DNA of 61,406 nt, filler included. It is 4 parts of 4 records of this genome, joined end to end, with 100 filler letters (N's around TTAATTAATTAA, not from the genome) between each part and the next. Parts side by side here need not be neighbours in the genome. Positions count along the whole stretch, not along the records: positions 29,102 to 55,910 come from SRR31156797_8747; 3 more parts are not named here. The stretch is one strand, 5' to 3'. The position numbers were made by a program, and so were the translations under genes. The notes under the pieces are model-generated. The model had not been told where the DNA came from, searched no databases, and saw only the letters and a list, made by a program, of their open reading frames with translations. This document shows positions 18,763 to 61,406 of the stretch, piece by piece; the first letter of the stretch is position 1, and every line of letters starts with the position of its first letter.

Positions 18763-18862
18763 NNNNNNNNNNNNNNNNNNNNNNNNNNNNNNNNNNNNNN
18801 NNNNNNTTAATTAATTAANNNNNNNNNNNNNNNNNNNNNNNNNNNNNNNNNNNNNNNNNNNN
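18763..18862. other. Artificial contig spacer
   Basis: 100 nt of N surrounding TTAATTAATTAA (stops in all frames). Confidence 0.98.
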
Positions 18863-18928: not shown

Positions 18929-21900
18929 ATGCTTGCAATCAATGGATATGAGATATTAAACGAGATATATCGAAATGAATCTTCAATTATTTTTAAGGGA
19001 GTCAAAACTGCTGATAAGAGTAATGTAATTATAAAGACTCTTAATTTTGATAACCCTAGCCAAAAGCAAATAGCAAAATTCAAGAGAGAGTTTAGTTTAA
19101 CTAAAAGCTTTAATGATTCTAAAATAATCAAAGCTTTTGAATTTATTCAAAGCGAATCTAAATATGCTATTGTTTATGAAGATTTTGGCGGAGTTTCATT
19201 TGATAATATCCTAAAAGCTGAAACATTTAGTCTGGAAAAATTCATTGAGTTATCTATCTCTATAATTGAAGCTCTGGAAGTTATCCATGAGAATCATATT
19301 ATACACAAAGATATCAACCCATCTAATGTTATCTGGAATAAAGAGAAAGATATCATAAAAATTATCGATATGGGTATCTCAACAGAATTATCAAGAGAAA
19401 AAACTGAAATTAATAACCCTCATATGATTGAGGGAACTTTAGCATATCTGTCTCCTGAACAAACCGGTAGAATGAATATCAAACTAGACTACAGAAGTGA
19501 TTTCTACTCTTTCGGAGCAACTCTTTATGAATTCTTCACAGGTCAAACTCCATTTGCAACTACTGATCCTATGGAGCTGGTTCATAGTCATATTGCCAGA
19601 GAGGTTCCTGAGCCATACAAATTATGCAAATTAAACTATAATGAAAATCAAAAAAGTATTATAAAATTCATCTCACAAATCATCATTAAACTCATGTCAA
19701 AATCTGTAGAAGATAGATATCAAAGTACAATTGGTATCAAAAACGATCTGAAAAAATGTTATGAACTTCTAAAAGAGAATAAAAAAATAGAAGATAGTGA
19801 GTTGGTACTTGCGTCAAAAGATATCTCTTCGAATTTCCAAATACCTCAAAGGTTATATGGAAGAGAGGATGAGATAAAAATACTTGAGCAGGCTTTCCAG
19901 AGAGTAGTAAACGGAAAAAAAGAACTACTACTTGTAGCAGGAGAACCCGGTGCCGGTAAATCAGCACTTGTTTATGAAATCCATAAATCTGTTACTACAA
20001 ATCATGGGTATTTCATACAGGGGAAATTTGATCAATTCAAAAAAAATATTCCGTATTCAGCTTTTGTGTTAGCTATCTCTCAGTTAATAAAGAGTATATT
20101 AACTGAAAATGATGAGAAGGTTATAAAATGGAAAGATAAAATTCTAAAAGAGCTTGGAAATAACGGACAGATTATTATAGATTTAATCCCTGAGCTGGAG
20201 TTGTTAATTGGTAAACAAACTAAACTTGCCAAATTAGGTCTTGATGAGACAAGAAACAGATTCAATACTACATTCCAGAATTTCCTAAGAGCACTTGGTG
20301 ATGTTGACGAGCCGGTTGTTATTTTCTTAGATGATTTGCAATGGGCAGATTCTGCATCTCTGCAATTAATAGAACTGACTATGACTGATATGGATATCGA
20401 AGGCCTTATGCTGATAGGTGCTTACAGAGATAACGAAGTTAGTGAAACTCATCCATTAAATGATACACTTCATAAAATAGAGAGTGAATATCAAAGATTT
20501 AAGGAATCAGGTATTGAACTTAACAGTGATATTATTCATTATATATCTCTTAAACCTTTAGAATTAGAACATGTACTGAATTTATCAGCAGATACTTTAG
20601 TTAGAAAAAATAGTGAAGTTTCCGAATTTGCGGAAATTTTACATAAAAAAACAAAGGGAAATCCATTTTTCCTTAATCAATTATTATCAGCTCTATATGT
20701 AGATGAAGTAATAAATCTGAACTATGAAGATGCTCAATGGGTTTGGGATGAGAAAAAACTTTCTAACTACTCTATTAGCCAAAATGTAGTTGATTTAATG
20801 ATCTCAAAAGTAAACTCACTGCCTGGAAATTCAGCTAAGATACTAAAACTCGCTGCATGTATTGGTAATATTTTTGACCTGCATACACTTGCTTTAATAT
20901 CAAAACAAAGTATCAAAGAAACAGCTGATTCTCTGCTTAACCCTCTAAAAGCAGGTTTAATTGAACCGGAAGATTATAACTATAAGTATATTGATTCAGA
21001 TAATACTTCTCCTAAAGAGAGTATAAACAGAGATATAAATCCTGTATATTCATTTGTACATGATAGGGTACAACAAGCAGCTTATCAGATGATGGAGAGC
21101 AGTGAGAAGCAGAAAACTCATCTGCTAATATCTAAATTAATGCTTCAAGAACTTGGAGTTGGTGAACTTAATACTGAATTAAACGAAATAAAAAAAGAAA
21201 AATTCGCTAATATCAAACAGGATACAATCTTTGATATAGCAAATCATATAAATATTGCGAAAAAACTTCTGAAAAAAGAAGAGGAACTAAAATTCTTAAA
21301 ACATATCAATCTGGAAGCGGGAGAAAGAGCTCTGGCTGCCAATGCCTACAAACCAGCTCTTGAGTATTTCAATACCGGTCTTGAGATGACTACTGAAAAT
21401 GACTGGGAATCAAGTTATGATTTAACATTAAATCTGTATATAAATACAGTTAGTGCTCAGTACTATAATTTCGAACATGATAAACTACTTGAAACATCAA
21501 ATAAAGCATTAAAATATATCAAAACTCCCGTAGAGGAAGTAGAGATAATTGACGTAATAATGAAATCATATTATACCCAGCAAAAATTGGTAGATTTATT
21601 AGATATAGGTATTGATATCTTAAAAAAACTCGATATCAAGATCCCTGCAAAGCCTAATACAGCACATATATTAATCGAATTCCTTAAAACTAAAAAAGTT
21701 CTAAAAGGGAAATCTTTAGATGATTTATATGAACTGCCCGCTATGACAGATAAAAAAATATTAGCTGCATCCAGAATAATTACGGGAATGGTTTCCTCTG
21801 CATATGTTGCCAGAGCTACCCTGTCACCTGTACTTAGTTTAAAACTTGTACAACTATCTGTTCAATATGGTAACTATCCAAATGCTCAGATTTATCCTTT

Positions 21901-24900
21901 CTTCGGACTAATGAATCTGGCGATAAGCAAGGATTTAGACGCATGTTATAACTATGGTGAACTAGGATTGAGAATAGCTAATAAAGAGGAGTTCGCAAAA
22001 TCAAAATCACAAAACCTGATGATGTTTTATACTTTTAATTATCACTGGAAAAAACCTCTGATTGAGTCAATTCAGAAGTTATGGGACGGATATCATGTAG
22101 GAGTAGAACTTGGTGATTTTGAATATGCTGCCTGGTGTCTGCATATTCCTGATTTTACTGCACTTTATACAGGTATGGAGTTAAATGAACTAACTAAAAT
22201 AATGGAAGGTCATAGAGAGAGAATGGTTAAGTTGCAACAAACTACTATTCTGAATATCTTCATTGGTGTACAGCAATTTGTTTCTAACCTGATGGGAGAT
22301 AATGAAAATCCTATTGAATTAACAGGTAAATATATGAACGAAAAAGAGCTCCTTGACTCACTGGAAGGCAGTAGCCTGAATACAACTCTTGGAAGTATAT
22401 TTTTCTGGAAAACTGCTATTTGTTTTGTATTTGAAGAGTATCAAAAAGCAGTTGATAATCATATAGAATATTTAAAATACACTGATTCTGTAGGTCTTTC
22501 AAGTATGTGTTTCGTTATGCTCTTTCATTCATTAGCAAGGTTGGAACTGTGTAAAGATCCTAATTATCCTGAAAGAAAAAAGATGCTGAAAGCAGTTAAC
22601 AAAGATCAAAAAACTATGAAAAAATGGGCAGAGAATGCTCCTATGAATCATATGTATAAATGGTATCTGATAGAAGCAGAAATGGAAAACGTAAAAGGCA
22701 AATATTTAAGTGCGCAGATGTATTATGAAAAGGCTATCCAATGCGCTATTGATGCTAATAATGACTGGGAAATTGCTCAAGGATATGAGCTGTTTGCTAA
22801 ATTTTACGATAAGCAAAATAATAGTGAATTAAGTGCTTATTTCCTGACAAAATCTATTAATAAATATAAAAAATGGGGTGCTCTGGCTAAAGTAGAGTTA
22901 TTACAAAAAAACTACCCTGAACTTATAGAGAAAACTAATGAAAAATTAAATACCACAATGACAGTTAACAACTCTCTAAGTACAAGAACTATCGGAAGTA
23001 CATCTACTGTTGTACTTGATCTGTTATCTAGTATGAAAGCACTTCAAACTATCTCAGGTGAGGTTGATCTAAATACTCTTTTATCCAAAATCATGAGACT
23101 TGTAATTGAAAATGCAGGTGCTGAAAAGGCTTATCTGATTCTTCCTAAAAAAGATACATGGTGTATAAACACTATGGCAGAAGTCAAAGATAGTGCCGTA
23201 TCCATAGAGGGAAAACTAAATATATGCTTAGATGAAGCTAATACTGAAAAATATTCTTTATCTAAAACTATAATTCAATATGTAGTTAGAACACATGAAA
23301 CAGTTATTCTGGAAGATGCATTAAAATCAGGAATGTTTAGTAATGATCCTCAATTAATAGAGGAAAATGCCAAATCAATCCTGTGTATGCCTCTGATTAA
23401 CCAAGGAAAATTAATAGCTATCTTATATCTAAAAAATAAACTATCAACAGCTGTATTTACTCTGGATAGAACTCAGGTCCTGAATATGATCTCATCACAG
23501 GCTGCAATATCTATAGAGAATACAAAACTCTATATTAACCTTACTCGTTCGGAGAATAAATTTAGAGGGATATTTGAAAATGCTGGTGTGGGAATTTTCC
23601 AAACAACTTTAAGTGGTAAAATAATAACGGCCAACCCGGCAGTTATCTCAATGCTAAGATATAATTCTCTTGAGGATATAAAAAACTCCATTACTAGTCT
23701 CGGGGAGCAAGTATATGCTGATAAGAATAAAAGAGAGAAATTACTGTCTAAACTACTTGAACACGGTCATGTTAGAAACTTTGAATTTGATTGTATATGT
23801 AAGGATCAGAGTATAATAAATGTATCTCTTAATGCAATGATTATAAGAGATAAACATAATAATACTGAATATATAGAGGGTGTTATTGAAGATATCACTA
23901 AGAAAAAATTAGCTGATAAATATAAAATTGATAAAGAGGTGGCTGAGGCCGCAACCAAAGCCAAAAGTGAGTTCCTCGCAAATATGAGTCATGAGATCAG
24001 AACTCCTATGAATGCTGTAATTGGTTTATCAGAGCTTACACTTCGAACTGATCTAAATTCAAAACAAGAAGATTATCTGTATAAAATCAATAGATCTGCA
24101 AAAGATCTCTTAGTTATTATAAACGGAATTCTTGATTACTCTAAAATTGAAGCTGGAAAAATGTTCCTGGAAAAAGCTCAGTTTAGCTTTGAATCTTTAA
24201 CAGATAGCTTAAAAACTTTAGTTGCTCTAAGAGCATATGAAAAGGGAATTGATTTCAGTTTTGATTTCTCAAAAGATATCCCTAATAAGCTGATAGGGGA
24301 TTCTGTAAGAGTGGGACAGGTACTGATTAATCTGGCGAATAATGCTATTAAATTTACTAATAGCGGAGAGGTAATCGTAGGTGGAAAAGTTACAAAATAT
24401 AATAAAGATAATATCAGAATAAAGTTTTATGTTCAGGACACCGGTATCGGTATGACAGAGGAGCAACTGAAAAAACTATTTAAATCATTCCAGCAGGCAG
24501 ACAGTTCTACTACCAGAAAATATGGTGGTACAGGTCTGGGATTAGCTATCTCAAAACAGCTTGTAAATATGATGGGCGGAGATATCTCTGTAAGCAGTAT
24601 TGCAGGTAAAGGAAGTCGATTTGAATTTGATATTTTACTTGATATAGATAGTGAAATCAGCAATATAGAAACTAAACAAAAATACAGAGTTCCTGATTCA
24701 CTTAAAGATAAATATGCATTAATAATTGATGAAAATCAATCGTCAGCTGAAATTATGAATAATTTCTTAGCCGGACTATCAATTAAAACAGATATTATTA
24801 ATAATCAGGAGAAACTAAATAAAATATTAGTGCAAGATAATATAGAAAATAAAGATTATGCAGTAATAGTTATTGATAATAAGCTAAAAAATCTTGATTT

Positions 24901-26221
24901 AGCAAACGTAATTGATAAAATCAAAGAGTATCCTGCTTTAACTCATATTCCTAAAATCTGTACCGTGCCATTATACGGCAAGGAGAACTTTATAGAAATC
25001 ACAGGTACAATTGACTTTGAAGCTATACTTGAGAAACCTTACACTTATACTTCTTTTTATAATACTCTTATGAAAACTAATAATAATAACGAGTATATAA
25101 TAAAACTTGAAAATGATAAACAGAATCAGCAGCTAACACTAAATCAAGAGATAGTGGGAGCAAACGTTTTAGTTGTTGATGATAATCAAATCAACAGAGA
25201 AGTATCAGGTGAATTCCTAAAACAAGCCGGTATTAGTGTAGAGTTCTCTCACAACGGAAAAGATGCTATTGAAAAAATATTTAATAAAAAATTTGATTTA
25301 GTCCTAATGGATATACATATGCCAGAAATGGATGGATTGGAAGCTACTAAACTAATCAGAGGAAAAGGAGAGGCAAAACTTCCTATTATCGCCATGACTG
25401 CAAATGCACTAAATGAAAGTGTCAAAACGTATTTTGAGGCTGGAATGAATGACTTTATTACCAAACCTGTTGAACCAGCCCTATTATTTGAAAAACTCGA
25501 GGAATGGCTGACAGATTTCAAAATTGTTCAAAATAGTAAACAAAACACTAGTTCAGGTATAGATGATAATATTAGAATATATTTGACAAATATCAAGGGC
25601 TTAGACTATAATTTAGGTCTAAGATTAACTGGTAATTCAATATCAAATTACCATAAACTACTTAACAAATTCGTCACAACAAAATCAAACTCAGTAAGTA
25701 AAATTAAAAGTGATCTGCGTGAAGAAAGATATAAACAGGCTGAACTGGAAGTTCACTCGATAAAAGGTGTTTCAGGTTTACTTGGACTCAAAGATATTGC
25801 TGACTTATCAGGCATTCTAGAGAAAGCTATACGAGAAGAAAACTATGGCTCTATTAATAATATTTTCTCGGATTTCGAGAAAACAGTTAATATCTCACTT
25901 GATCAATTGAAGCGAAGTCCTAAAGTAACTTCTAATGAAATCGTAGAAACAGTAACAGCAAAAAGTTTTGAAAAAGCTGAGTTTATTGAAAAAATCGATC
26001 TACTTATACAGTATTTAAACAACGGAAACTCTAAATCTTATAAACTTCTGGATGAACTGGAAGAGATCTCTGTTGATACAGAATATACTACATACTTGAA
26101 GCAAGCTGCTGAATATATCGATGATGTTGAATTTGAATCTGCTCTTGAAGTGATTAGTAGAATAAAAATAGGTTTGGGAGAAAACAATGGTGGAGAAAAA
26201 ATATCGAATATTAATAGCTGA
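18929..26221 (+). CDS. Giant hybrid: Ser/Thr kinase - AAA/STAND-like ATPase - helical region - GAF - PAS - HisKA/HATPase - degenerate REC - REC - HPt
   Basis: [25 protein letters not shown]; Walker A GEPGAGKS and Walker [17 protein letters not shown] (GAF); [31 protein letters not shown]. Confidence 0.92.
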
Positions 26222-27221: not shown

Positions 27222-28940
27222 ATGAAAAAAACTATGATTTTAATAATAATTCTATTTTTCCTATTTCCTATATTAACATTTACAGAAAATGAAAAGGGAA
27301 TAAAACTTAAAAAGCTGAAGAATAACGAAGGTAGAAGATGGGCTATTCTAATAGGAATAAACGAATATCAGGATAAAGGAATATTGAATCTCAAAAAAGC
27401 TCAAAATGATGCAAATGCTTTAGGAAATATTCTAAAAAATCAGGGTCAATTTGATAATATATATATTATGACTGATGATAAAGATTTTAGAGATAATGAC
27501 TTCCCTACATATTTTAAAATCAAAGATAGATTAAGTTATATATCAAGTTTCTTAAAAGCGAATGACCTTGTAGTATTCTCATTTTCGGGTCATGGTATTA
27601 CACTGGAAGGAGAAAGCCGGCTGCTTGTATCAGACAGCAGAATACAGGACTTAAAAAGTACAACAATTAGTCTTGAAAAAGATATAGTAGCAATGCTTAA
27701 TAAAGCAGGTGTTAAAAAATCATTACTCTTAATTGATGCTTGCAGGGAAAACTTTCAAGAAAACAAAGGGATAAACAGAGATGGTCTAAAGGCTAAAAAA
27801 TTTGAAAAAGCAGAGGTGGCAGCTGCATTTTATGCAACTAAATCAGGATGGTACAGTTATGAAGATACTGAAACTGATTATGGTGCTTTTACCAGATTCG
27901 TTGTAGAAGGCTTAGAAGGAAATGCAGACAAAACAACAGGAAATAATGACGGCATCGTCTCTTTTAGAGAGCTCTCGACATATGTAGAGGATGGAGTATT
28001 TGACTGGGCATTAAAAAACGATAAAAAACAAGCTCCCTACACCAAAATTTATGGTGAAAGTTACGGAGATTTAGCATTAACAATGGCAAAAAATAATAAA
28101 GATACTAAAAAATCTACAAGTCAACTTGTTAAACCCACTGTTTCTATCTCTAACAATAACTTAGTATTGGTAGAGGGCGGATCATTTCAAATGGGTTCTA
28201 ATAATGGAGAGGATGATGAAAAACCGATTCATGAAGTTATAGTTAATAGCTTTTTTATAGGAAAATATGAAGTAACAGTAGAGGAGTGGAAAAAATATCT
28301 AGATGATTCAAAAGTGAATTTTGATTGGTATCAAAATAGTTGGGGTGATTACCCTGTCGCTAAATATAGTACAAGTGATAAACATCCTATGATAAATATA
28401 AATAAAGGAGAAATTCTAGAATACTGCAATTGGTTAAGTAAAAAAGAGGGACTTCCTATTGCCTATGATCGTGAAGGAAATTTACTGGATAAAAATGGAA
28501 ATATTACTGTTGATATAACAAAAGTTGAAGGGTATCGACTACCTACAGAAGCCGAATGGGAGTTTGCAGCACGAGGAGGAAATAAAACGCAAAACTATAA
28601 ATATAGCGGAAGTAATAATCTCAAGGAGGTTGGCTGGTATGGGAGTCAGAGTAAAATAAATGCTGTAGGAACTAAAAAAGCTAATGAATTGGGAATTTTT
28701 GATATGAGTGGTAATGTATGGGAATTATGCCAAGATACATATGACGAAAATGCATATTCAAAACATAGTAAAAAAAATCCGTATATACATGGAACTATAG
28801 AGCAAAAAACTATTCGTAGAGGAGGATCATGGGGATCTAATAGTTATGTTGCAAGAGTTAGTGACAGGTACCCAAGCGATCCAAATTTAAGAGTTTATTT
28901 TACTGGATTTCGTATTGCCAAAACTCTTATTAATCATTAA
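27222..28940 (+). CDS. Exported caspase-like (C14) peptidase fused to an FGE-sulfatase (SUMF1-like) domain
   Basis: Hydrophobic N-terminus; catalytic dyad FSGHG and IDACR; C-terminal GSFQMG, RLPTEAEWEFAARG, DMSGNVWE, RGGSW and GFR motifs. Confidence 0.9.
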   Translation: MKKTMILIIILFFLFPILTFTENEKGIKLKKLKNNEGRRWAILIGINEYQDKGILNLKKAQNDANALGNILKNQGQFDNIYIMTDDKDFRDNDFPTYFKIKDRLSYISSFLKANDLVVFSFSGHGITLEGESRLLVSDSRIQDLKSTTISLEKDIVAMLNKAGVKKSLLLIDACRENFQENKGINRDGLKAKKFEKAEVAAAFYATKSGWYSYEDTETDYGAFTRFVVEGLEGNADKTTGNNDGIVSFRELSTYVEDGVFDWALKNDKKQAPYTKIYGESYGDLALTMAKNNKDTKKSTSQLVKPTVSISNNNLVLVEGGSFQMGSNNGEDDEKPIHEVIVNSFFIGKYEVTVEEWKKYLDDSKVNFDWYQNSWGDYPVAKYSTSDKHPMININKGEILEYCNWLSKKEGLPIAYDREGNLLDKNGNITVDITKVEGYRLPTEAEWEFAARGGNKTQNYKYSGSNNLKEVGWYGSQSKINAVGTKKANELGIFDMSGNVWELCQDTYDENAYSKHSKKNPYIHGTIEQKTIRRGGSWGSNSYVARVSDRYPSDPNLRVYFTGFRIAKTLINH

Positions 28941-29001: not shown

Positions 29002-29101
29002 NNNNNNNNNNNNNNNNNNNNNNNNNNNNNNNNNNNNNNNNNNNNTTAATTAATTAANNNNNNNNNNNNNNNNNNNNNNNNNNNNNNNNNNNNNNNNNNN
29101 N
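29002..29101. other. Artificial contig spacer
   Basis: 100 nt of N with TTAATTAATTAA. Confidence 0.98.
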
Positions 29102-29383
29102 CGGCCTTGGACAATTGACCAGCGTCGGTCGTGGACAACTAGGTCCCCTCAACGTCGGCCTTATGCAACTCGGTTCTCTGGTAGGCCGACAGGTCGCAGG
29201 AACTCTCGTCAATCTGCACGTCACCGGATTGGTTGGTCTACAGGTCACAGGATGAGTGGTCGGTCGGCAAGCTGAAGGCACTCTCGTTGGTCGGCACGTA
29301 GCAGGAACACGTGTCACACGACAGGTTACCGGTTGGCTGGTCGGCCTGCACACAGGGGTCAAGGTCCGAATGGTCGGTCTGAT
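29102..29383 (-). repeat. Coding tandem repeat, about 10 units of about 9 aa, consensus TCRPTRVP(A/V)
   Basis: VCRPTSQPV TCRVTRVPA TCRPTRVPS ACRPTTHPV TCRPTNPV TCRLTRVPA TCRPTREPS CIRPTLRGPS CPRPTLVN CPRP. Confidence 0.92.
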
Positions 29384-30745
29384 TAATCGTCTATAGGCAG
29401 CAAGTGCTTGAATGATACCAGCGCCCGAATACTGATCAAAACCTGCAGGACCAATATCCTTAGCCGTTGCCTTGAGCACCGACTTGCACTGGCCCTGATT
29501 TAAACTGGCCTTTGCCTGCTTCAAAAGAGCAACAACTCCTGCCAAAATCGGGGTTGCTGCAGAGGTGCCGTTATCACTATTGTTATAGCCGGTAAAATGG
29601 CTGATTGAACAAAAGTCGGGCTTATTGGGGTCCAGTGCAGCTGGCCCCTGGCTGCTATAGCCGATAAGCTGCTCATTCTTGTTAACTGCACCAACAGTCA
29701 TCACCAGGGGATGGCCATTGGCCCCCCAAATACTTTTTCCGGGGCCAACATCAGTCCCACATTTACCTGAAGCGCAAGTCGCCCCACAATTACCAGCGGC
29801 AAAAAGCACTAAAATACCCTCATTGATTGCTTCAACTACCTTACGCGTAAATGGATGATTAGGATTTCGGGCATAGGTTGTATCCCAGCTTTCCTTATAA
29901 ATACCCCAACTATTTGTAAGGACATGAGGAGTTCCATGGGTACGATGACGACTAATAGCCCAGTTAAAGGCCTGAAGAGCGCGGCTGATGGTTCCCGGTG
30001 AACCGCCGCTTCCGGCAACACGCATATCATAGAGCTGCACATCAGGTGCCATGCCAAGCACGTCTGTAGCACACATATTCCCATGATCACCCCACTTACC
30101 GGATTCGGTACCCCAATCCGAAGGCCAACCACCTATTACACGCGGAATACGCCGGGATGTTTCCCCGGCTTTTACAGGTCGTCCCTGGGCAGTAATACCA
30201 GAGTCCAAAACACCTACAACTATGCCGGTGCCGCGAAATCCAGCGGCCCAAATCTGATCCACACCAAGGTAATTGGCAACATCTGCCATATTGCCCTTCG
30301 GGGTCAAAGGCGAACAGTCACATGGGGGAATAGGACAGGGAGATGCGGCAGGAGAGTCCTCCGGCTGCAGGTCTGAATCCCAGTCCGGAAAAGGAGCTAT
30401 CGGCGTATCCGGCCACACATCGGCTACTTCAGGCATGGCCCGCAGCGCTTCAATTTCTTGCGCATCCTTAACAGTTCCGCGAACAATATATGTCTCCACC
30501 GAAGGACCAGCAATCTCCTGCATGCTTCCGGCTGCACTTTCAAGACTTACCGGTTCGAACTCTTCATCAAGATTAAATCCAGGTAAGCTTATTCCCCGTG
30601 CAGTCCCCATTGCAAAAGTTGGCGATCCGCCCGGTCCGTGCCGCAGCTCCACGAGTACACTGTAATTACCATCACTATCAGTGGGTTGAGGGATCTCATT
30701 GTTCACATTACCACTACCAGTTTTCTTTTTCGGTGCCTTAGCCAT
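29102..30745 (-). CDS. S8 subtilisin-like serine protease with N-terminal prodomain and C-terminal Cys-rich repeats; 3' end truncated by contig end
   Basis: Triad VLDSG / DHGNMCA / NGTSAATP, oxyanion motif FAAGN; GAGG RBS; no signal peptide. Confidence 0.92.
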
Positions 30746-30798: not shown

Positions 30799-31092
30799 CT
30801 ATATAATGGTATTTTCATCAGAACGTGACATTGGCTCAACAACAGTGTCCTTCCAGATATAGACAACGGATTTCTTTGCTTCAAGAACAGCAATTACTTT
30901 TTCACTCCTTACCCACCCATGGACAATGGCTGTAGTCGGGACTCTCTCTGTACCACCACCATCCATTAGAACTGGTTCATAGCCCACATCCAGTATAAAT
31001 CCGTCAACATCCCATTGACCGACTTCTTCCATTAGCAGTCCAAAGTCTTGGCGATCTGACACGTCTATTTCAAGCAGAATACTGATCTTCAC
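30799..31092 (-). CDS. Stand-alone homologue of the adjacent subtilase prodomain (candidate inhibitor/chaperone)
   Basis: Collinear matches to the S8 N-terminus: SILLEI/SVLVEL, GFILDVGYEPV/GFNLDEEFEPV, TAIVHGWV/TYIVRGTV, VVYIWKDTVVEPM/VADVWPDTPIAPF. Confidence 0.8.
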   Translation of the reverse strand: MKISILLEIDVSDRQDFGLLMEEVGQWDVDGFILDVGYEPVLMDGGGTERVPTTAIVHGWVRSEKVIAVLEAKKSVVYIWKDTVVEPMSRSDENTII

Positions 31093-32736: not shown

Positions 32737-34620
32737 TTAAACGGTAACATCACCAGGTCCATTGACAATCCGATGGCCCCGATGTTCAACCATGCCGAGA
32801 GGGTCGTGCATGGCAAGTCGTCCAAAATGCAAACCAGCCTTACTTTCCACCAGCTGCACAGGGACCTGATAGGTCTTATACGCACCAAAAACAAACTCCA
32901 GGTCTTCTATAAATCTTGATTGGCTCAAAAGATACGCCGAAGCAGAAAGTTGACCGGTGAACGTGTTAATACAGACAACAACCTTCCAATACTCCTGCGG
33001 AATAAGCACATCTCTGTATTCTCTATCGCAGGGACCGAACACCGGGCCAGTAAAAACACTCACTTTCAAATCATGGAGTGCGGCGTTGTCTAGAATATAT
33101 TCCTCAAGGTCCAACCAACTCCTCTGATTGAGCTGCGCATGTTGTGGATGGGCATTGGTGTAGAAAAATGTGTCATCCGCTGCCTGAGCGGCCTCCTCTC
33201 TCGTGTCCCCCCAAGCAGGATCAAGTCGCCGCACCATGTGACCGCGATCCAATGGATTGTTTTTGTACAGCTCGTTCCCGGCCTGATATATTTCCTCCAT
33301 TCGCGGATCCAGTCCCCACCTGTCGCGACGGCGGGGTATCTTATAGAGCTTCCCGCCATCTATATTGCATGCAGTAAACAATGCCAGACGACGACTCTTA
33401 TGCATAGCCAGCGAGAAATGGAGATAATGAAGATAGGGTTCCTCGCTATTTTGTACAGGAGCCACTACACCTGGATTAACTGTAGGAAAGGCAACTTCCT
33501 GCCCTAAAAACAAAGGGTCATACCCTTCACGGGCCTCCAAATCTGCCTGGGTAGGTTTCTTTTCCGCAGCACCGGGGCTTGGCAGTAATATAGTACTGCG
33601 GCCATATAGATCTGCGAGCTTGCTCTTAATAGTTTCATTGGTGACAGCAAAATTATTTTCTTTATAGGAACCGGCAAAGTGGAGGCCGGCAGCTTTACCA
33701 TCTTTAAGGTTGACCACCACCGAACCTGAATTGCCCCCCAGGGTCGTACAATCATGGGTCAAGATAAACCGGTCCTCACGAACACCGGTTACACGCCCAG
33801 GGCTGAGTCGTTTAACATTGTAGATATTTTTAAAGAGACGCTGCATGATAAATGGATCATTTCTTCCTGCATCCTTTGCTGGATATCCAATAACAGCAAT
33901 ATCATCGTTTCTCTGCACCTGAAGGGATGAAAGCTCAATCGGCTGCGGCAACCCCTCGACTTTTTCCAGCCGAATCAAGGCCATATCAGGCCTTTCCGGC
34001 CCTTCTTTTTCAATAAAAGCAATATCAACAACTCCAACTTCAAAGGCTGGATTTGGAGATGTATACTCTTCGTTAAAATCTACCTGTACCCCTAACTGCG
34101 CACCAAAAGGAGTGGTGCGGAGGACAATATGGCTGCCAGAGTGATAGGCAAAAACGTTTGCAACATGACGGTTGGTAATCATCACATCTTCATCTATCAT
34201 CCACCCGGTCCCGACATACTCCATGGTGGGATCATTCACCAGCTCCACACGCCCTACTTTAGGGATGGCCAGCTGGAGATAGTCTGTTGCAGGCTCTATT
34301 CTATTTTTTACCACCTGCAGCTCTGGTTCTTCCCATTGTCCGTCTCGAATAAGCAAAGCAGGCCGTCCTGTAGCAAGTATGATGGCCTCAGGTAATGCAA
34401 ACCCTGCGGGAACGCCTTCCTTTTCGTCAAGAAGCGCATCAATCCCTTTGTGCTCTCGTTCCTGCAGCCGTACCCCCATCCCTGCCTGCAAGGCTGGAAA
34501 TTCGACCGACTCATTGAGCATTTCCTGCAGCGTTCCCACCTTATCCTTTAGTTCGGAAACAACTTCTTCATCGGCGAGTAGAGAAGCTAATGGAGCATTT
34601 TCATATTTTTTTCTACCCAT
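32737..34620 (-). CDS. Trypsin-like serine protease fused to a DNA/RNA non-specific (NucA/EndoG-type) endonuclease
   Basis: Protease triad TNRHV / DMALIRL / DCTTLGGNSGS. Nuclease DRGHMVRR, TNAHPQH..LNQ..W..LE, VFTGPVF and IPQEYWKV. No signal peptide. Confidence 0.92.
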   Translation of the reverse strand: MGRKKYENAPLASLLADEEVVSELKDKVGTLQEMLNESVEFPALQAGMGVRLQEREHKGIDALLDEKEGVPAGFALPEAIILATGRPALLIRDGQWEEPELQVVKNRIEPATDYLQLAIPKVGRVELVNDPTMEYVGTGWMIDEDVMITNRHVANVFAYHSGSHIVLRTTPFGAQLGVQVDFNEEYTSPNPAFEVGVVDIAFIEKEGPERPDMALIRLEKVEGLPQPIELSSLQVQRNDDIAVIGYPAKDAGRNDPFIMQRLFKNIYNVKRLSPGRVTGVREDRFILTHDCTTLGGNSGSVVVNLKDGKAAGLHFAGSYKENNFAVTNETIKSKLADLYGRSTILLPSPGAAEKKPTQADLEAREGYDPLFLGQEVAFPTVNPGVVAPVQNSEEPYLHYLHFSLAMHKSRRLALFTACNIDGGKLYKIPRRRDRWGLDPRMEEIYQAGNELYKNNPLDRGHMVRRLDPAWGDTREEAAQAADDTFFYTNAHPQHAQLNQRSWLDLEEYILDNAALHDLKVSVFTGPVFGPCDREYRDVLIPQEYWKVVVCINTFTGQLSASAYLLSQSRFIEDLEFVFGAYKTYQVPVQLVESKAGLHFGRLAMHDPLGMVEHRGHRIVNGPGDVTV

Positions 34621-56010: not shown

Positions 56011-57003
56011 ATATTTAGTAAGTTTCCAGAATCTTGATTTCTTATCAAATAAATTCCAAATAAGTCCTAAAGTAAGTAAGAAATATCCAAAATAAGTTGG
56101 CCATTTACCTGGGTCATTATTTACAGACAATACAGTTCCTTTTTCATCTGGGTCATATGAACTTTGGAAGAATAAGAAGTTTCCTTCATGAAGTGTTCTG
56201 TTCATAAAAATTCTATAGTCATATTTTCTACCATCAGGTTTGATTACTGTTACTTCAGAAGCATAAGATGATGGAGCCATACTTCCTGGGTATCTATCAA
56301 GTTGGAAGTCTCTTAATTGAATAGCAAAAGGAAGTTCAAGAGTTTTTGAACCATACTCTAGTGTTACAACTGCATCACCAAAGTCTTCAACTTTTGTTAC
56401 ACCTTTCATTCCTCTTTTACCTGGTAGTTTTACAGTTTTTGTTTCTCCATTTAATGAAACATCTACTGTTAAAATACCCATGTCATTTTTACCTTTTTTA
56501 GCATACATATAGTTGTTAAAATCTACAGTTAACTCTTTATTGTCAAAAGAAATACTATGAGAAAAATCATTGCTACCTAAAGCAGTAAATTCCATTGGGT
56601 ACTCTTTATAGAAAGTAGAGTCTTTTTGTTTTATTTTAACTTGTAAATAAGGTTCTAAAGAGATCATTCTATTTTGAATCTGACCCTCTCTAATTTGCAT
56701 AATTCCTTCATAACCAACATATCTAGTTACAGCTGCACCAATTAATATTACAACAAATGATAAATGGAAGATAAATCTTGGTTTATGTTTCCACATTTTA
56801 TATTTATAGATTATACCTGCAAGGTTAATAGTTGTTAAAACTAATACTGCTTCATACCAGAAGTGGTTGTAAACAAGAACTCTAGCAGATGATGTACCGA
56901 AATCATTTTCGATGAAAGTTGCTACTCCTGCCCCAATGGCTAGAATAGCTAATAAAGTAAGTGTTGTCTTGAAGGAGAACAAGACGTCAGTTAGCTGTTT
57001 CAA
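56011..57003 (-). CDS. System II cytochrome c biogenesis protein (CcsBA/ResB-type), 3' truncated
   Basis: ATFIENDFG, FHLSFVVIL, YPGSMAPSSYASEV and FFQSSYDPDEKGTVLSVNNDPG motifs. Confidence 0.88.
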
Positions 57004-57163
57004 TATAAATCCTTTTTAAAAAGTTACCGCTAATTATACGTATTATCTATTTAATTAACGTGTAGAAAGTATTTTTTACAAAATTTCGTTATTATAACCA
57101 AAAAACTTTACTTATTCTTGATTTAAAACAAGTTTTTAAATAAATTAAGATTATAATTCTAAA

Positions 57164-58078
57164 ATGAATTTAGAAGAACTTAAACAGAAAAAAGACGACT
57201 GTAGAAAATGGAAAAATGTTGAACCTTGGTATAATCAATTACTAAAGGTTTTTGACTTACACAAAGAGAAATTACACGTAGATTATGGTGATTGGTTTAC
57301 TATTGGAAAAAGAGAAGATTTAACTGATAGTGAATTTGCTTTAATAGAAGAAACAGCACAAAAACTTATTCCTTGGAGAAAAGGACCTTTTAATCTATTT
57401 GGTCTTGAAATTGATAGTGAGTGGCAGAGTAATATAAAATACAATTTAATAAGACCTCATTTTAATTTAAAAGATAAGGTTGTTGCAGATATTGGTTGTA
57501 ACAATGGTTATTATATGTTTAGGATGCTTGAAGATAAGCCAAAAAGATTAATTGGTTTTGACCCAAGTGCTTTAACATTACATCAGTTTGAGTTTGTTAA
57601 TCACTTTGTTAAATCAGATATCATTTATGAGATGCTTGGAGTAGAGCACTTAGAGTATTATAATCATAAATTTGACTTTATTTTTATGCTTGGTGTTTTA
57701 TATCATAGACCAGACCCTGTTGGAACATTAAAATCACTTGCACGAGGATTAAACTCAAAGGGTGAGATTTTAATTGATACTTTTATGATTGATGGAGAAG
57801 ATGAGATTTGTTTAACTCCGGATAAAAGATACTCTAAAATTCCAAATATCTATTTTATTCCAACTATTCCTGCTTTAAGAAATTGGTTAAGTCGAGCTGG
57901 TTTTGAAGATATTGAAGTAATTGCAACAACAACAACTACTAGTGAAGAACAAAGAAAAACAAAATGGTCATTTGATCAAAGTTTAGAAGACTTTTTACAC
58001 CCTGAAGACCCAACAAAAACAGTTGAGGGTTATCCTGCTCCAAAAAGAGTTTATATGAAAGCTAGAAAGATACAGTAG
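57164..58078 (+). CDS. cmoB: tRNA U34 carboxymethyltransferase
   Basis: PWRKGPF, IDSEWQS, DIGCNNGYY, GVLYHR and TVEGYPAPKR motifs. Confidence 0.95.
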   Translation: MNLEELKQKKDDCRKWKNVEPWYNQLLKVFDLHKEKLHVDYGDWFTIGKREDLTDSEFALIEETAQKLIPWRKGPFNLFGLEIDSEWQSNIKYNLIRPHFNLKDKVVADIGCNNGYYMFRMLEDKPKRLIGFDPSALTLHQFEFVNHFVKSDIIYEMLGVEHLEYYNHKFDFIFMLGVLYHRPDPVGTLKSLARGLNSKGEILIDTFMIDGEDEICLTPDKRYSKIPNIYFIPTIPALRNWLSRAGFEDIEVIATTTTTSEEQRKTKWSFDQSLEDFLHPEDPTKTVEGYPAPKRVYMKARKIQ

Positions 58079-58079
58079 A

Positions 58080-59054
58080 TTAGAATAAATCTATTGTATC
58101 ATCAGGAGTTAAATCTTTATAGTTAAAGAATTGGCTTCTACCTCTATTTTTTGCTTCATATAGAGCTATATCTGCATTTTTAATAGTTTTATCTATTGTA
58201 TCACTATCATCAGAAGTATTAAATACATCATATCCAATACAGATTGTTTTTTGTAGTGTATGTCCTAAGTCATTTACAGTAACTTTTACTTCCGCAAAAT
58301 CTTTTATTATATTTTGTGCAATTTTTGCAATATCTGATTCACTTGTAGTACTAAGCATTGAGATTAAAAATTCATCACCACTTAGTCTTGCAACCATATC
58401 AAACTCAGAAATATTTGAGTGAATTACCCTTGCAAGTTCAACTAAAACTTGATCTGCAACTTCATGGTCAAACTCATCAATAACTGCTTTAAAGTGGTCA
58501 ACTCCTATCATTAGGAAGTAAATACTTTTATACTCTTTTTTAGATAAAGTTATCTGTTTATTTAGATTTTCAATTAAATAGTGTCTATTATAAACTTTAG
58601 TAACAGAGTCTAATGAAAGTGATTCAATAAAGTTTTTCTTGATAATACCATTTTGAATAATTGGTGAAATTTGAAATAGAGCTGATTCAATTACATTGTA
58701 CTGTTCTGCAAGTATGTCATGGTGTTCTTTTGATGAAGCACAGAATGATACGATAGCATTTAGGTTTGTATGTGTGTTTACAATGAAGAAAAAAGATAAT
58801 GAATCATCTAAATAAAACTCATCTCCTTCAATAAATACATTTTCTCTATTATTTCTTTCTATATCAAATAGGGCAAATGTTACGTTATCTACTTCAAAGT
58901 TTGTGTGTAACCAAAGATAAATATCTTCTGCCATTTGTTTTAAGTTTGAAGAGTATTGTAATTGGTCATATAATTTATAAATATTTTCTAAAGCTTTAAA
59001 GTCTTTTTCATTTGTTTTTGCTGATTTTACTAATTCTAAAATATTATTCTTCAT
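58080..59054 (-). CDS. GGDEF-domain protein, degenerate (SGDEF)
   Basis: GVDHFKAVIDEFD, ARLSGDEF and ADIALYEAKNRGR; ends in TIDLF. Confidence 0.85.
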   Translation of the reverse strand: MKNNILELVKSAKTNEKDFKALENIYKLYDQLQYSSNLKQMAEDIYLWLHTNFEVDNVTFALFDIERNNRENVFIEGDEFYLDDSLSFFFIVNTHTNLNAIVSFCASSKEHHDILAEQYNVIESALFQISPIIQNGIIKKNFIESLSLDSVTKVYNRHYLIENLNKQITLSKKEYKSIYFLMIGVDHFKAVIDEFDHEVADQVLVELARVIHSNISEFDMVARLSGDEFLISMLSTTSESDIAKIAQNIIKDFAEVKVTVNDLGHTLQKTICIGYDVFNTSDDSDTIDKTIKNADIALYEAKNRGRSQFFNYKDLTPDDTIDLF

Positions 59055-59062
59055 TCTATCCC

Positions 59063-59974
59063 TTAAAAAAGATCTATTGTATTTGTCTCTTCTTTCTTAA
59101 ATTTGAAAAGTTGGCTTCTTCCTTTATTTCTTGCTTCATATAGTGCAATATCAGAAGATCTAAAAATCTCTTCTGTTTTACTTGCATCATCAGGAAACAT
59201 AGAAATACCAGCACAAATTGTTTTCATCAACGTTTGATTTGTGTCAATGTTAACAATAACTTTTTTATTCTTAAAGTTTTCTATTATTTTTTCAGCAACT
59301 TTAATTGCATTATCTTCACTATCTATATTATGTAATATAACTAAAAACTCATCAGATTCAATTCTCGCAACAATATCAGAAGTTCTAACAGAGTTTTTTA
59401 AACTTACTGCAAGCTCTTTTAAAACTTTATCTCCTGTATTGTAATCAAACTCATCAATAACAGCTTTGAAATGGTCAATACCTATTTTCAAAAACGCAAC
59501 TTTTTTCTTCTCCCTTGAAGAAAGAGGAAGCATTGTTTTTAAATATTCATCTACATATTGTCTGTTATAAAGACCTGTTAAGTTATCTTTTAATGATAAC
59601 TCTTTTAGTTGAGATGTTAGGTACTTATTATAAATAGTTTGTGAAATTAAGTTAAACGTTGTTCTTACTATCTCTGAAGTAGATTCAATTTTATCTTGTT
59701 CTAATCCTGATTCAAAATAAAAAGTTACTTCTAATTCATCACTTTCATCAAGTTTAATAAATAGATTTTTACTTTTAAAATCTTTATTTGAATCAATATT
59801 CGAATAAATACTTCTATTATTGATAGCTGCTTTAAACCTAGATATTCCAAAGTCTTTATTTAAATACGATGATAAATATGCGAAGATATCATCTAATTTA
59901 TGTAAAGTCTTTAAGTGATCATTTAACGCAATAATCATTTGAAAACTATAAGAGTTTAACTTATTATAATTCAT
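59063..59974 (-). CDS. GGDEF-domain protein, degenerate (ESDEF) with intact RxxD I-site
   Basis: DNLTGLYNR, GIDHFKAVIDEFD and RTSDIVARIESDEF; ends in TIDLF. Confidence 0.85.
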   Translation of the reverse strand: MNYNKLNSYSFQMIIALNDHLKTLHKLDDIFAYLSSYLNKDFGISRFKAAINNRSIYSNIDSNKDFKSKNLFIKLDESDELEVTFYFESGLEQDKIESTSEIVRTTFNLISQTIYNKYLTSQLKELSLKDNLTGLYNRQYVDEYLKTMLPLSSREKKKVAFLKIGIDHFKAVIDEFDYNTGDKVLKELAVSLKNSVRTSDIVARIESDEFLVILHNIDSEDNAIKVAEKIIENFKNKKVIVNIDTNQTLMKTICAGISMFPDDASKTEEIFRSSDIALYEARNKGRSQLFKFKKEETNTIDLF

Positions 59975-59988
59975 TTTTTACCTAACTA

Positions 59989-60582
59989 TTATAAATAATT
60001 TTTCCAATTTATTAAAGAGTCTCTTTCACTATTTAAAGATGTAGCTGGGCCATGTCCTGGGTAGATTCTAATATCTTTTTCCCAAGCTAAAATCTTATCA
60101 ATACTTTTTCTCATCTTTTCTGGACTAGAAAAAGGAAAATCTGTTCTTCCAATAGAGTTATTAAAGATAAAGTCACCTGAAAACAAGTGTTTATCTATCT
60201 CTATTGCAGAACATCCTGGAGTATGACCAGGAAAATAGTGAAACTTAACTTTTACACCGTCAAAGTCAAACTCTTCATCAGGCTCAACTAATACATCAGC
60301 ACATGATGGAGTCATCCCAAACCCATAAGGGTCTTTTTCAAGCATAAAGTTGTCTTCTTTTGGAGTGTAGATTTTTAAACCTAATTCTTCACTCACTTCT
60401 TTGTTTGACCATACATGATCAAAATGTCCATGTGTATTTAAAATTGCAACAGGGTTTTGTACGTTTTGAAGTACCCATCTTGTTGCTCCAACACCTGGAT
60501 CAATAATAAAATCTTTTCCATCTACAGTAATAATATAACAATTTGTTTGATAATCACCCATTGGTTGGACTTTTAATGACAT
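59989..60582 (-). CDS. MBL-fold metallohydrolase (glyoxalase II-like)
   Basis: THGHFDH, PGHTPG, FSGD, GRTD and PGHG motifs. Confidence 0.92.
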   Translation of the reverse strand: MSLKVQPMGDYQTNCYIITVDGKDFIIDPGVGATRWVLQNVQNPVAILNTHGHFDHVWSNKEVSEELGLKIYTPKEDNFMLEKDPYGFGMTPSCADVLVEPDEEFDFDGVKVKFHYFPGHTPGCSAIEIDKHLFSGDFIFNNSIGRTDFPFSSPEKMRKSIDKILAWEKDIRIYPGHGPATSLNSERDSLINWKNYL

Positions 60583-60648
60583 AGTTCTTTAATCCTTAGT
60601 TAGCTAAAATTTAATCTAGTATATTAAATTAAAACTGTAAGGAAGATT

Positions 60649-61406
60649 ATGCATTATCATTTAAGGCTAGAAAATATCGTACTTGAAGCCAATCCTAAAA
60701 AGAAGATTAGCGACTTTAAAGCCTTTTATAACGATTATTTAAACAAAAAATCACAATTTGATTACAATTATACACCATATGAGCTAAAAAATCCATCATA
60801 TAATGATTTTTTGAAAATTGTATTACCAAAACATGTTAAAACACCAAAACATTTCAAGACAAATGAAGGGAAAATAATCCTTCTACATACAATTGCACAT
60901 ATTGAGTATAGTGCAATTGATTTAGCTCTTGATGCAGCATTAAGATTTAAAGATTTACCAGATGAGTATTATGATGATTGGTTAGAAGTTGCAAATGATG
61001 AAGTTCGACATTTTGAGATGCTTGAGGGCTTACTTAAAGAATTAGGTTCTTATTATGGCGAGTTAGAAGTTCATACAAACCTTTTTGAAGCAATGAAAAG
61101 TACACCTGATTTATTATCAAGGATGGCTGTTGTTCCAAGGTTTTTAGAAGCAAATGGTTTAGAACAAAATCCAAAGATTATGGAGAAATTAAACTCAAAC
61201 ATTGATGACTTTAATCAAAAGATATTAGATGCATTAGAAATTATTTTAGAAGAAGAGGTTGATCATGTAACAAAAGGTGATAGATGGTTTAAATTTGAGT
61301 GTGAAAGACAAGGTCTAGACCCGGAAAAAACTTATATTGAGATACTTGAAAGAGTATTTCCAGGAAGTACAACAAAAAAATATCAATTAAATATTGAAGC
61401 AAGAAA
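60649..61406 (+). CDS. Ferritin-like DUF455 family protein, 3' truncated at window end (not in ORF track)
   Basis: AAGGA RBS; LLHTIAHIEYSAIDLA, DEVRHF, VPRFLEANGL and EEVDHVTKG motifs; no stop before the end. Confidence 0.88.
   Translation, partial: MHYHLRLENIVLEANPKKKISDFKAFYNDYLNKKSQFDYNYTPYELKNPSYNDFLKIVLPKHVKTPKHFKTNEGKIILLHTIAHIEYSAIDLALDAALRFKDLPDEYYDDWLEVANDEVRHFEMLEGLLKELGSYYGELEVHTNLFEAMKSTPDLLSRMAVVPRFLEANGLEQNPKIMEKLNSNIDDFNQKILDALEIILEEEVDHVTKGDRWFKFECERQGLDPEKTYIEILERVFPGSTTKKYQLNIEAR

Follow-up and report, generated by a model that had tools for sequence, protein, structure and literature searches.

What is the role of a long run of Cys- and Thr-containing repeats at the C-terminal end of a subtilase? 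This question is raised by a 61,406-nucleotide stretch of DNA (hereafter, the window), which consists of four contig parts joined by filler letters and carries, on the minus strand, the gene of an S8 family serine protease (subtilase) that runs into the end of contig SRR31156797_8747 in the middle of such repeats. An earlier note, made from the letters alone, had proposed that the repeats are (a) cassettes of a precursor like those of RiPPs (peptides made by the ribosome and modified after translation), fused to their own protease and suited to thioether cross-links, (b) a metal-binding or redox-sensing tail or (c) a positively charged tail serving to bind nucleic acid or to polymerize. We compared the tail and its gene neighborhood with those of its relatives, and the results suggest that the window tail is probably a multi-ring lanthionine substrate fused to the protease.

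The open reading frame (ORF) was translated from position 30745 to 29102 and comprised 548 readable codons before running into N; its tail reads LTPVCRPTSQPVTCRVTRVPATCRPTRVPSACRPTTHPVTCRPTNPVTCRLTRVPATCRPTREPSCIRPTLRGPSCPRPTLVNCPRP, followed by N. The ten Cys span residues 466-545 and are spaced by 9, 9, 9, 9, 8, 9, 8, 10 and 8, and Thr is present in all nine complete Cys-Cys segments. The units, each with 1-2 Arg, follow the grammar CRPTxxPxT and later CxRPTLxGPS and CPRPTLVN. The translation gave the units exactly as the earlier note had listed them, and its placement of the repeats directly after the catalytic domain was nearly right, as they begin 22 residues past residue 443. Its further claim that conservation lies at the protein level also held. 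Tandem Repeats Finder returned 0 rows for positions 29100-29500, which indicates that the repeat exists at the protein level only; exact direct repeats in the tail DNA reached at most 9 nucleotides (nt), the tail Cys codons were divided between TGC (5) and TGT (5), and the Arg following Cys was encoded by 5 different codons. Five tail 9-mers were 63% identical at the amino acid (aa) level vs 59% at the nucleotide level.

As the same note recognized, the contig breaks within the tail and no modifying enzyme is visible in the window; the break coincides with an artificial contig joint. With regard to misassembly, a concern also raised there, an 809-nt Logan unitig (run X1, probably the source sample) was found to span the tail with 0 differences, and its last base was the last base of the contig. 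Because unitig and contig stop at the identical base, misassembly is not indicated, only a break in the assembly graph.

We searched 5.8 billion proteins for homologues (1198 hits among the 7999 candidates scored) and took a census of the tails of 121 proteins, namely the window protein and 120 listed hits. Full-length relatives had a length of ~600-820 aa and included P0002 (693 aa, 89% identity) and the ORF of locus L081 (697 aa, 88% identity). The tails were classified as periodic Cys with Thr/Ser (78 proteins), Thr..Asp (24) and other (12), with 6 proteins that were almost tail-less and 1 fragment. Close homologues retained both the tail and the Cys periodicity, so that this refuting condition of the earlier note did not arise. 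P0002, L081 and the Desulfobulbus locus L001 continue past the point at which the window ends, with CPRPTL-type units, an FSAAMCTPPPP motif and an acidic end. By comparison with the 693-697-aa relatives (P0002, L081), ~145-150 codons are absent from the 3' end of the window gene.

The 78 Cys tails had gaps of 5 to 12 residues from Cys to Cys (mode 8), and Pro accounted for 23%, Cys for 13%, Thr for 12% and Arg for 11% of their composition. Every one of the 870 Cys-Cys segments contained at least one Thr/Ser, whereas shuffling the non-Cys residues 1000 times gave a mean of 695 and a maximum of 723; the pattern of Cys with Thr/Ser is thus beyond chance at the family level. The offset from Thr/Ser to the next Cys peaked at 5 residues, followed by 3, 4 and 6. 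Offsets of 3-6 residues are in the range of nisin-type rings, and pairing of Cys with Ser/Thr at ring-forming distances was accordingly found both in the window (9/9) and in the family (870/870). Full-length relatives carried 7-24 units per tail (median 12), the units being 7-10 residues long with a single Cys and a conserved Thr (or Ser) amid Pro/Arg, and the predicted substrate tail in these proteins spans 200-250 residues.

Past the last Cys, a block rich in Asp/Glu and Trp/Tyr and almost without Lys/Arg ends the protein. The more positive the repeat block, the more negative was this acidic block (Spearman -0.88, n=77); the net charge of the repeat block varied from +2 to +43 among the 77 homologues, and the summed charge of the two blocks had a median of -4 (interquartile range -6 to -3, n=77). 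P0028 was the sole strong outlier in this charge matching, and it looks frameshifted. Shortening of the Cys gaps toward the C-terminus was seen in 62 of 77 proteins, and 63 of 77 had a Trp-containing aromatic pair among their final 30 residues. Across phyla, the Cys and Thr/Ser are kept while other tail positions vary.

We clustered the ORFs of 80 genome loci and ran the cluster hidden Markov models over six-frame translations. Beside relatives with Cys/Thr tails, three genes were observed 3' of the S8 gene on the same strand, encoding an APH-type kinase, a HopA1-type lyase and a LanC-like cyclase (PF01636 APH, E 2.6e-9 to 3.7e-14; PF17914 HopA1, E 4.4e-32 and 4.8e-29; PF05147 LANC_like, E 8.9e-54 and 1.4e-43). 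In the genome set, the full trio followed the S8 gene in L002, L003, L004, L007, L010, L012, L013, L059, L062 and L063; it was present in 9/9 of the Cys/Thr-tail loci scored by regular expression (regex) with at least 3 kilobases (kb) of downstream DNA and also in L062, whose tail was not scored. In L001 (89% identity), the kinase gene adjoins the S8 gene and the contig then ends. In the metagenome set, 12 Cys/Thr-tail loci contained the full trio, namely 10 regex-positive loci and the Lys-type tails L085 and L088; the contig ends after the kinase and HopA1 genes in L081 (88% identity) and after the kinase gene in L086, downstream DNA is nil in L091 and L120, and trio genes were present in L097, L099 and L100, whose tails were unscored by the regex. 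Cys/Thr-tail loci of this set with downstream DNA but without the trio were not observed. In contrast to these loci, 0/40 propeller-tail loci of the genome set contained the trio. The gap between the S8 and kinase genes in relatives is 10-270 nt. The 266-nt gap of L081 was considered as a precursor site and rejected; its ORFs, in several frames, encode 21-82 aa and none is Cys/Thr-periodic.

Among PDB structures, the kinase best matched 9dk1 chain A (E 4.9e-10) and the lyase chain B of the same entry (E 1.5e-17); according to passages of a 2025 review (PMC12141560), 9dk1 is the heterodimeric LxmK/LxmY dehydratase of lexapeptide, a class V lanthipeptide. The best NCBIfam match of the cyclase was the cyclase domain of LanM (239 bits). 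The motifs HG, WCxG and CHG, which we take to be the acid/base His and zinc ligands of NisC, were at least 95% conserved in 24 cyclases, and the motifs HGD and DWE were conserved in 28 kinases; all three enzymes look intact from these motifs and matches. The genes downstream of homologues, to which the earlier note had pointed as a check, thus proved to be those of the trio, and this gene context supports its suggestion that Cys/Thr cassettes suited to thioethers are fused to the S8 protease. We predict that the window organism also has the trio genes and that they were lost, together with the last codons of the S8 gene, at the contig end.

Sister S8 genes were found with tails of other kinds. 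Thr..Asp tails, built of 'GTPVVLDQ'-type repeats, a PFVLxTPH motif and a coiled-coil-like end in that order, preceded an MvdD-type ATP-grasp ligase in 6/6 loci, the best matches of the ligase being the MvdD pre-ATP-grasp domain and the NCBIfam model 'ATP-grasp ribosomal peptide maturase'. Three Bacteroidota members with Lys/Glu repeat tails were followed downstream by an unknown 254-aa protein and an ATP-grasp protein. (The Thr/Asp-tail loci are L005, L011, L014-L017, L074 and L083, and the Lys/Glu-tail loci are L056, L076 and L077.) In a FastTree tree of 101 S8 cores, lanthionine genes accompanied 19 of 21 Cys/Thr rows, the exceptions being the window and L120, where downstream DNA is lacking; ATP-grasp genes accompanied 6/6 Thr/Asp rows, and 51/51 propeller rows had neither enzyme set. 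Cys/Thr and Thr/Asp rows were interleaved within one half of this tree. Strict pairing of tail and enzyme on an interleaved tree indicates that the tail residues change together with the chemistry of the neighboring enzyme.

The Thr/Asp and Lys/Glu tails look like graspetide-type substrates. In the available text of Makarova et al. 2022 (PMC8939145), branches 7 and 8 of the graspetide-type ATP-grasp enzymes are described as strongly linked to peptidases with no precursor found, and the peptidases are proposed to cut other cellular proteins to supply substrates. The sister S8 genes followed by MvdD-type ATP-grasp genes resemble these branches by description. They differ in that the peptidase's own Thr/Asp or Lys/Glu tail is here the obvious substrate candidate, and the window gene in turn differs from them in being of the Cys/Thr rather than the ATP-grasp type. 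The sister tails may be the missing precursors of the peptidase-linked loci reported in 2022. The 254-aa protein (cluster c55) was considered as a truncated ATP-grasp enzyme of Makarova branch 8 and rejected, as the best E value of a BLASTP comparison with ATP-grasp proteins was 0.72.

Most other family members (L018-L071, cyanobacterial and Bacteroidota loci) carry folded repeat tails. These consist of ~45-residue WxxW..LGG..NRLD units (DUF346 or fungal fucose-lectin-like), FG-GAP repeats (L020) or BTRD1 (L025). The tail position thus appears as a swappable module on a constant protease.

The trio was also found without the protease. A genome scan with the cyclase alignment yielded 78 new loci, three of which (L145, L150 and L152) lie on the same contigs as L003, L062 and L063. 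The full trio was present on the strand of the cyclase match in 46/78 of the new loci, and only 5/46 reached the S8 threshold; L144 encodes a divergent S8 protein with a CPSR-type tail. For 20 of the 41 trio loci without S8, the ORF just upstream of the kinase gene encodes a protein whose length is 160-620 aa, whose periodic Cys number 8-39 and in which Thr+Ser make up at least 12%. Such proteins are exemplified by GGPTQCGGIHTCG, CPQTQLCPRTLT and, from a Nitrosopumilus metagenome-assembled genome (MAG), RCPIPRTLRCPITP. Long Cys/Thr repeat proteins therefore look like a common partner of this kind of trio, of which partner the S8-fused tail is one variety. Pfam families were found in 0/15 of the stand-alone repeat proteins scanned. 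The S8-linked cyclases formed one group, separate from the other cyclases, in an IQ-TREE quick tree (Shimodaira-Hasegawa-like approximate likelihood ratio test 100, 23 vs 41 rows), which leaves out 30 LanC-only rows; a FastTree tree of all 94 rows agreed. The stand-alone repeat proteins occur in Acidobacteriota, a Planctomycetota isolate genome, Longimicrobiaceae and the Nitrosopumilus MAG, and their loci include L148 (2552-3745), L151, L153-L155, L158 (870-3797), L159, L164, L167 (546-1034), L169, L178 and L182 (2695-3693). A conserved ~90-aa domain is common to the N-termini of the repeat proteins of L158, L169 and L182.

Taken together, the trio and the tail pattern are consistent with the following mechanism. 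The S8 pro-enzyme would be made in the cytoplasm with a disordered tail, and the APH-type kinase would phosphorylate the conserved Thr/Ser of each unit. The HopA1-type lyase would then eliminate the phosphate to give dehydrobutyrine or dehydroalanine, kinase and lyase being relatives of the lexapeptide dehydratase LxmK/LxmY. Addition of the Cys 3-6 residues downstream by the LanC-like zinc cyclase would give approximately one (methyl)lanthionine ring per unit, and the product would be a string of rings linked by two or three Pro/Arg residues. The acidic and aromatic end block would neutralize the Arg-rich ring block and may be a recognition ('follower') element for the enzymes. Such a role would parallel that of graspetide leader motifs such as 'PFFARFL', which probably activate ATP-grasp enzymes (Makarova et al., PMC8939145, in its available text). 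A canonical short leader-core LanA was considered and rejected, since the repeats belong to the tail of a chain at least 548 aa long, with a distinct conserved block after them and none before; the protein is accordingly treated as working like a lanthipeptide substrate rather than as a canonical LanA.

As for the fate of the ringed tail, we lean slightly toward its staying on the protease as a protease-resistant module rather than being cut into small ringed peptides. Retention is favored by the folded binding-type tails (DUF346/lectin-like propellers, FG-GAP, BTRD1) that the S8 core carries elsewhere, by the abutting of the units with no spacer or cleavage motif, and by the conserved gradient of ring size. 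Release is favored by the combination of an acidic and a cationic block, which resembles the precursors of antimicrobial peptides. It is also favored by the predicted activity of the protease, whose catalytic residues are intact, and by the fact that S8 enzymes such as NisP mature lanthipeptides; NisP is the subtilisin-like protease that cuts the nisin leader, as stated in passages of a 2025 review (PMC12328550). A bolder combination seems to us a rather unlikely one, namely that these signal-less subtilases, highly conserved and horizontally spread, carry tails turned by cognate enzymes into a rod of 7-24 macrocycles, masked by the acidic block, from which the S8 domain releases monocyclic Pro/Arg-rich lanthipeptides, so that the protein would be a self-contained pro-toxin with thioether rings here and ester/isopeptide rings in the sister branches. 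If this were true, protease, multi-core precursor and neutralizing pro-piece would reside in one chain, and the 'precursor-less' peptidase-linked ATP-grasp loci would hide their precursors in the peptidase tails.

However, several observations weigh against a lanthionine substrate. The modifying enzymes are not visible in the window, and the evidence for them comes from relatives. The best NCBIfam match of the kinase, the LxmK model NF038156, scored 41.5 bits against a cutoff of 315, so that the trio enzymes are distant relatives of the characterized ones. A conserved transporter or immunity gene was not found around the four-gene cassette among the clustered loci, and this lack would be unusual for an exported lanthipeptide. 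The S8 core occurs with folded tails and no RiPP enzymes, which implies that the protease need not mature its tail. Two loci flagged by a looser Cys filter, which have other kinds of Cys-rich tail, lacked a visible trio: L009 (helical Cys-rich repeats), where the contig ends 2 nt past the gene, and L072 (an archaeon, Cys/Tyr 12-mers), with 1.9 kb of downstream DNA. In addition, the tail statistics, those on charge included, and the co-occurrence statistics ignore shared ancestry, and near-duplicate loci are included in the counts (identical S8 cores in L085/L086/L088 and in L101/L102).

We further analyzed the possibility that the tail is dehydrated as proposed, but that the LanC-like enzyme adds an outside thiol, which would result in a decorated or intermolecularly cross-linked tail. 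Eukaryotic LanC-like proteins add glutathione to dehydroamino acids, the kinase/lyase/cyclase context would be identical, and the absence of a conserved transporter hints at an intracellular role. However, the presence of one Cys per Thr/Ser segment in 870/870 cases, at offsets of 3-6, would be needless if the thiol were external, and is the pattern expected of intramolecular rings; we regard this alternative as improbable. The second reading of the earlier note, in which the Cys would be free thiols for metal binding, redox reactions or disulfides and the trio would serve another substrate, draws on the 13% Cys content of the repeat block and on eight invariant Cys in the S8 core itself. The tail Cys are, however, single, Pro-flanked and 5-12 residues apart, with no CxxC-type pairs, and no other candidate substrate gene was found in the cassette. 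Moreover, the chemistry of the tail switches with the enzyme type, and related trios follow stand-alone proteins of like repeat grammar, which leaves this reading with little probability.

A cationic tail that binds nucleic acid or polymerizes, the third reading of that note, could appeal to the 1-2 Arg in each window unit. The net charge of the repeat block, however, is widely variable and is offset by the acidic block, as described above; the cationic character is thus neither conserved nor exposed, the reading is weakened and we consider it very unlikely. Predictions gave no fold for the tail: in the AlphaFold2 (AF2) model of P0002, the equivalent region (from ~residue 472 to the end) had a predicted local distance difference test (pLDDT) score of <50 and no secondary structure, and ESM Atlas returned no feature match and only structural neighbors with template modeling scores of at most 0.23. 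A phmmer search with the full L081 tail against 1.84 billion representatives gave 56 hits at E<=0.001, of which the 8 inspected were all Pro/Thr low-complexity proteins with no periodic Cys, and is uninformative on the occurrence of the tail in other protein families. These results are what a fast-evolving, disordered low-complexity linker with a coincidental enzyme neighborhood would give, but retention of Cys and Thr/Ser across phyla while the rest varies, and co-occurrence with the enzymes without exception where DNA is available, make such a linker the least probable explanation of all. The predicted disorder also agrees with the lanthionine reading, in which the unmodified tail is without a fold.

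The proposed lanthionine substrate can be compared with several known systems. It resembles class V (lexapeptide LxmK/LxmY) in its separate APH-fold kinase and HopA1-fold lyase, here predicted to dehydrate Ser/Thr, but the predicted substrate is a 200-250-residue tail of a ~600-820-aa protease instead of a short leader-core peptide, and a LanC-like cyclase is present here while a decarboxylase and a transporter were not seen. Characterized class V pathways are described as often having no known cyclase in the abstract of PMC11186320. According to the available text of Eyles et al. 2021 (PMC8153245), HopA1/phosphotransferase pairs are widespread and 20% of HopA1-like proteins have LanC-like cyclases encoded nearby or fused to them; short peptide genes at cluster starts were sought there. 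With LanP/NisP, the present system shares an S8 serine protease genetically tied to a lanthionine pathway; NisP is, however, separate and secreted, whereas here protease and putative substrate form one polypeptide with no signal peptide. In the borosin OphMA and the plant BURP-domain cyclases, core peptides, sometimes repeated, are located at the C-terminal end of the enzyme. There, the fused enzyme modifies, whereas here it is a protease and modification would fall to separate enzymes. The Methanococcus voltae CrpA/CrpC system (2026) comprises, in the passages of PMC13692751, a large protein with a C-terminal Cys motif repeated ~10 times and a neighboring enzyme that makes thioether cross-links. 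It differs in its radical SAM enzyme, ranthionine links and stand-alone protein, and dehydration, LanC and protease fusion are absent there; it suggests that protein-scale RiPP-like cross-linking is an emerging theme, with other enzymes.

A subtilase with a Cys/Thr repeat tail beside a kinase/HopA1/LanC trio was undescribed in the literature searched, the scope of which excluded subscription journals and supplements. Lanthipeptide-type chemistry and the kinase/lyase/cyclase logic are known; judging from comparative genomics, the protease-fused repeat tail as substrate would be new. If the tail is ring-closed, lanthionine chemistry would extend beyond short secreted peptides to a poly-macrocyclic segment on a full-size enzyme, and one protease scaffold would be paired with differing cross-linking chemistries, thioether links on the one hand and ATP-grasp-made ester or amide links on the other. 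This would give a concrete answer to the published puzzle of peptidase-linked ATP-grasp loci with no precursor and would suggest that stand-alone Cys/Thr repeat 'lanthi-proteins' make up a wider class, represented in Acidobacteriota, Planctomycetota and Nitrosopumilus. Such tails could supply natural scaffolds for proteins with many defined rings.

The features of the window gene and its surroundings are summarized below.

Features of the S8 subtilase gene, its product and the adjoining contig end, with positions counted along the window.
Feature	Position	Strand	Details
S8 subtilase gene	29102..30745	-	3' end missing at contig end; ORF and translation
Propeptide-like domain	30392..30685	-	Residues 21-118, beta-alpha-beta-beta-alpha-beta; AF2 model of P0002, Foldseek
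CPIPPCDC cluster	30314..30337	-	Residues 137-144, between propeptide and catalytic domain; low pLDDT in model
S8 catalytic domain	29417..30232	-	Residues 172-443; PF00082 E 8.8e-29, profile positions 1-288 of 288
Linker	29351..29416	-	Residues 444-465; end of last S8 helix and RLIRPTIRTLTPV; helix 447-455 in model
Cys/Thr/Arg/Pro repeat block	29102..29350	-	10 Cys, 9 complete units of 8-10 residues, cut at contig end
97-aa stand-alone propeptide paralogue	30799..31092	-	Directly upstream of S8, same strand
Artificial contig joint	29002..29101	.	N runs flanking TTAATTAATTAA

Pfam assigned only one family, Peptidase_S8 (PF00082), to the window protein. The catalytic triad D181, H221 and S395 and the oxyanion residue N319 are present and were invariant in both alignments (A1, n=24; A2, n=59). 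In the AF2 model of P0002 (89% identity), the propeptide domain had pLDDT values of 83-95 and the elements E28-36, H42-50, E66-68, E84-92, H95-102 and E107-112; with Foldseek, the propeptide and catalytic domains aligned over 450-490 columns to the unprocessed pro-subtilisins 3afg, 2z2z and 3whi. The Pfam Inhibitor_I9 match was weak (E 0.015, below the cutoff), and the model indicates that the protein has an N-terminal propeptide of I9-like fold. Its N-terminus is basic, with a Lys-rich stretch and no hydrophobic signal segment. The cysteines C137, C142 and C144 were invariant in 24 aligned sequences. Eight non-tail Cys in all, in the motifs CPIPPCDC, HGNMC, NCGxTCxxGxCG and DFC (residues 137-144, 225, 320-329 and 379; window ~29607-30337), are invariant across phyla; possible roles in this signal-less S8 protein are a metal site or an internal cross-link.

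The catalytic core showed an unusual degree of conservation, being 57-93% identical across Desulfobulbus, Gammaproteobacteria, Ruegeria, Roseovarius, Cyanobium, several Actinomycetota, Cyanobacteria, Bacteroidota, Chloroflexota and one archaeon. The median terminal branch was 0.077 changes/column for the S8 core vs 0.38-0.44 for the partner cyclase (different trees); the S8 core thus evolves far more slowly than the cyclase, although the protease is spread over many phyla. Two assignments of the protease were rejected. The closest curated S8 model was that of the type VII secretion system mycosins (TIGR03921), but the score of 80.1 bits against a cutoff of 278.75 makes the protein a non-member. 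As a known anti-phage defense protein, it matched only the generic 'subtilase' model of PADLOC (E 4.5e-16); PADLOC gave zero matches for the kinase, the lyase, the cyclase and the small neighbors.

The 97-aa ORF directly upstream was 33% identical to S8 residues 56-125 over 70 aa (BLASTP, E 1e-7). With tblastn, it matched the N-terminal part of the S8 gene in 46/80 loci, and a separate copy was found only in L001 (71% identity). This propeptide paralogue is possibly a trans-acting chaperone or inhibitor. The other window neighbors (90-, 169- and 125-aa ORFs and a trypsin-nuclease fusion) were conserved in L001 only, that is, in 1/80 loci each, and were therefore not counted as part of the system. 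The fusion (627 aa, 32737-34620, minus strand) joins a Trypsin_2 peptidase to a DNA/RNA non-specific endonuclease, and its Trypsin_2 part also matched PADLOC models labeled nacht and RT-Protease.

The TTAATTAATTAA spacer is present at positions 18807, 29046 and 55955 of the window. The contig from 29102 to ~55911 has a G+C content of ~43-53%, compared with ~25-36% in the contigs on either side, and carries genes for rubrerythrins and a sigma-54 two-component pair as well as an Nqr operon; the flanking low-G+C contigs (1-29001 and 56011-61406) encode PriA, Rho and DnaX. The window S8 core is 96% identical to that of the Desulfobulbus sp. MAG (L001), and the five genes upstream of the window S8 gene are syntenic with L001. 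The contig is probably a mis-binned Desulfobulbaceae contig and not from the organism of the flanking contigs. On the neighboring low-G+C contig, a plus-strand gene at 27222-28940 encodes a protein that starts with a signal-like segment and in which a caspase (Peptidase_C14) and an FGE-sulfatase domain are fused, and the adjoining gene at 18929-26221, also on the plus strand, encodes a 2430-aa protein with Ser/Thr kinase, AAA_16, GAF, PAS, histidine kinase, receiver and Hpt domains.

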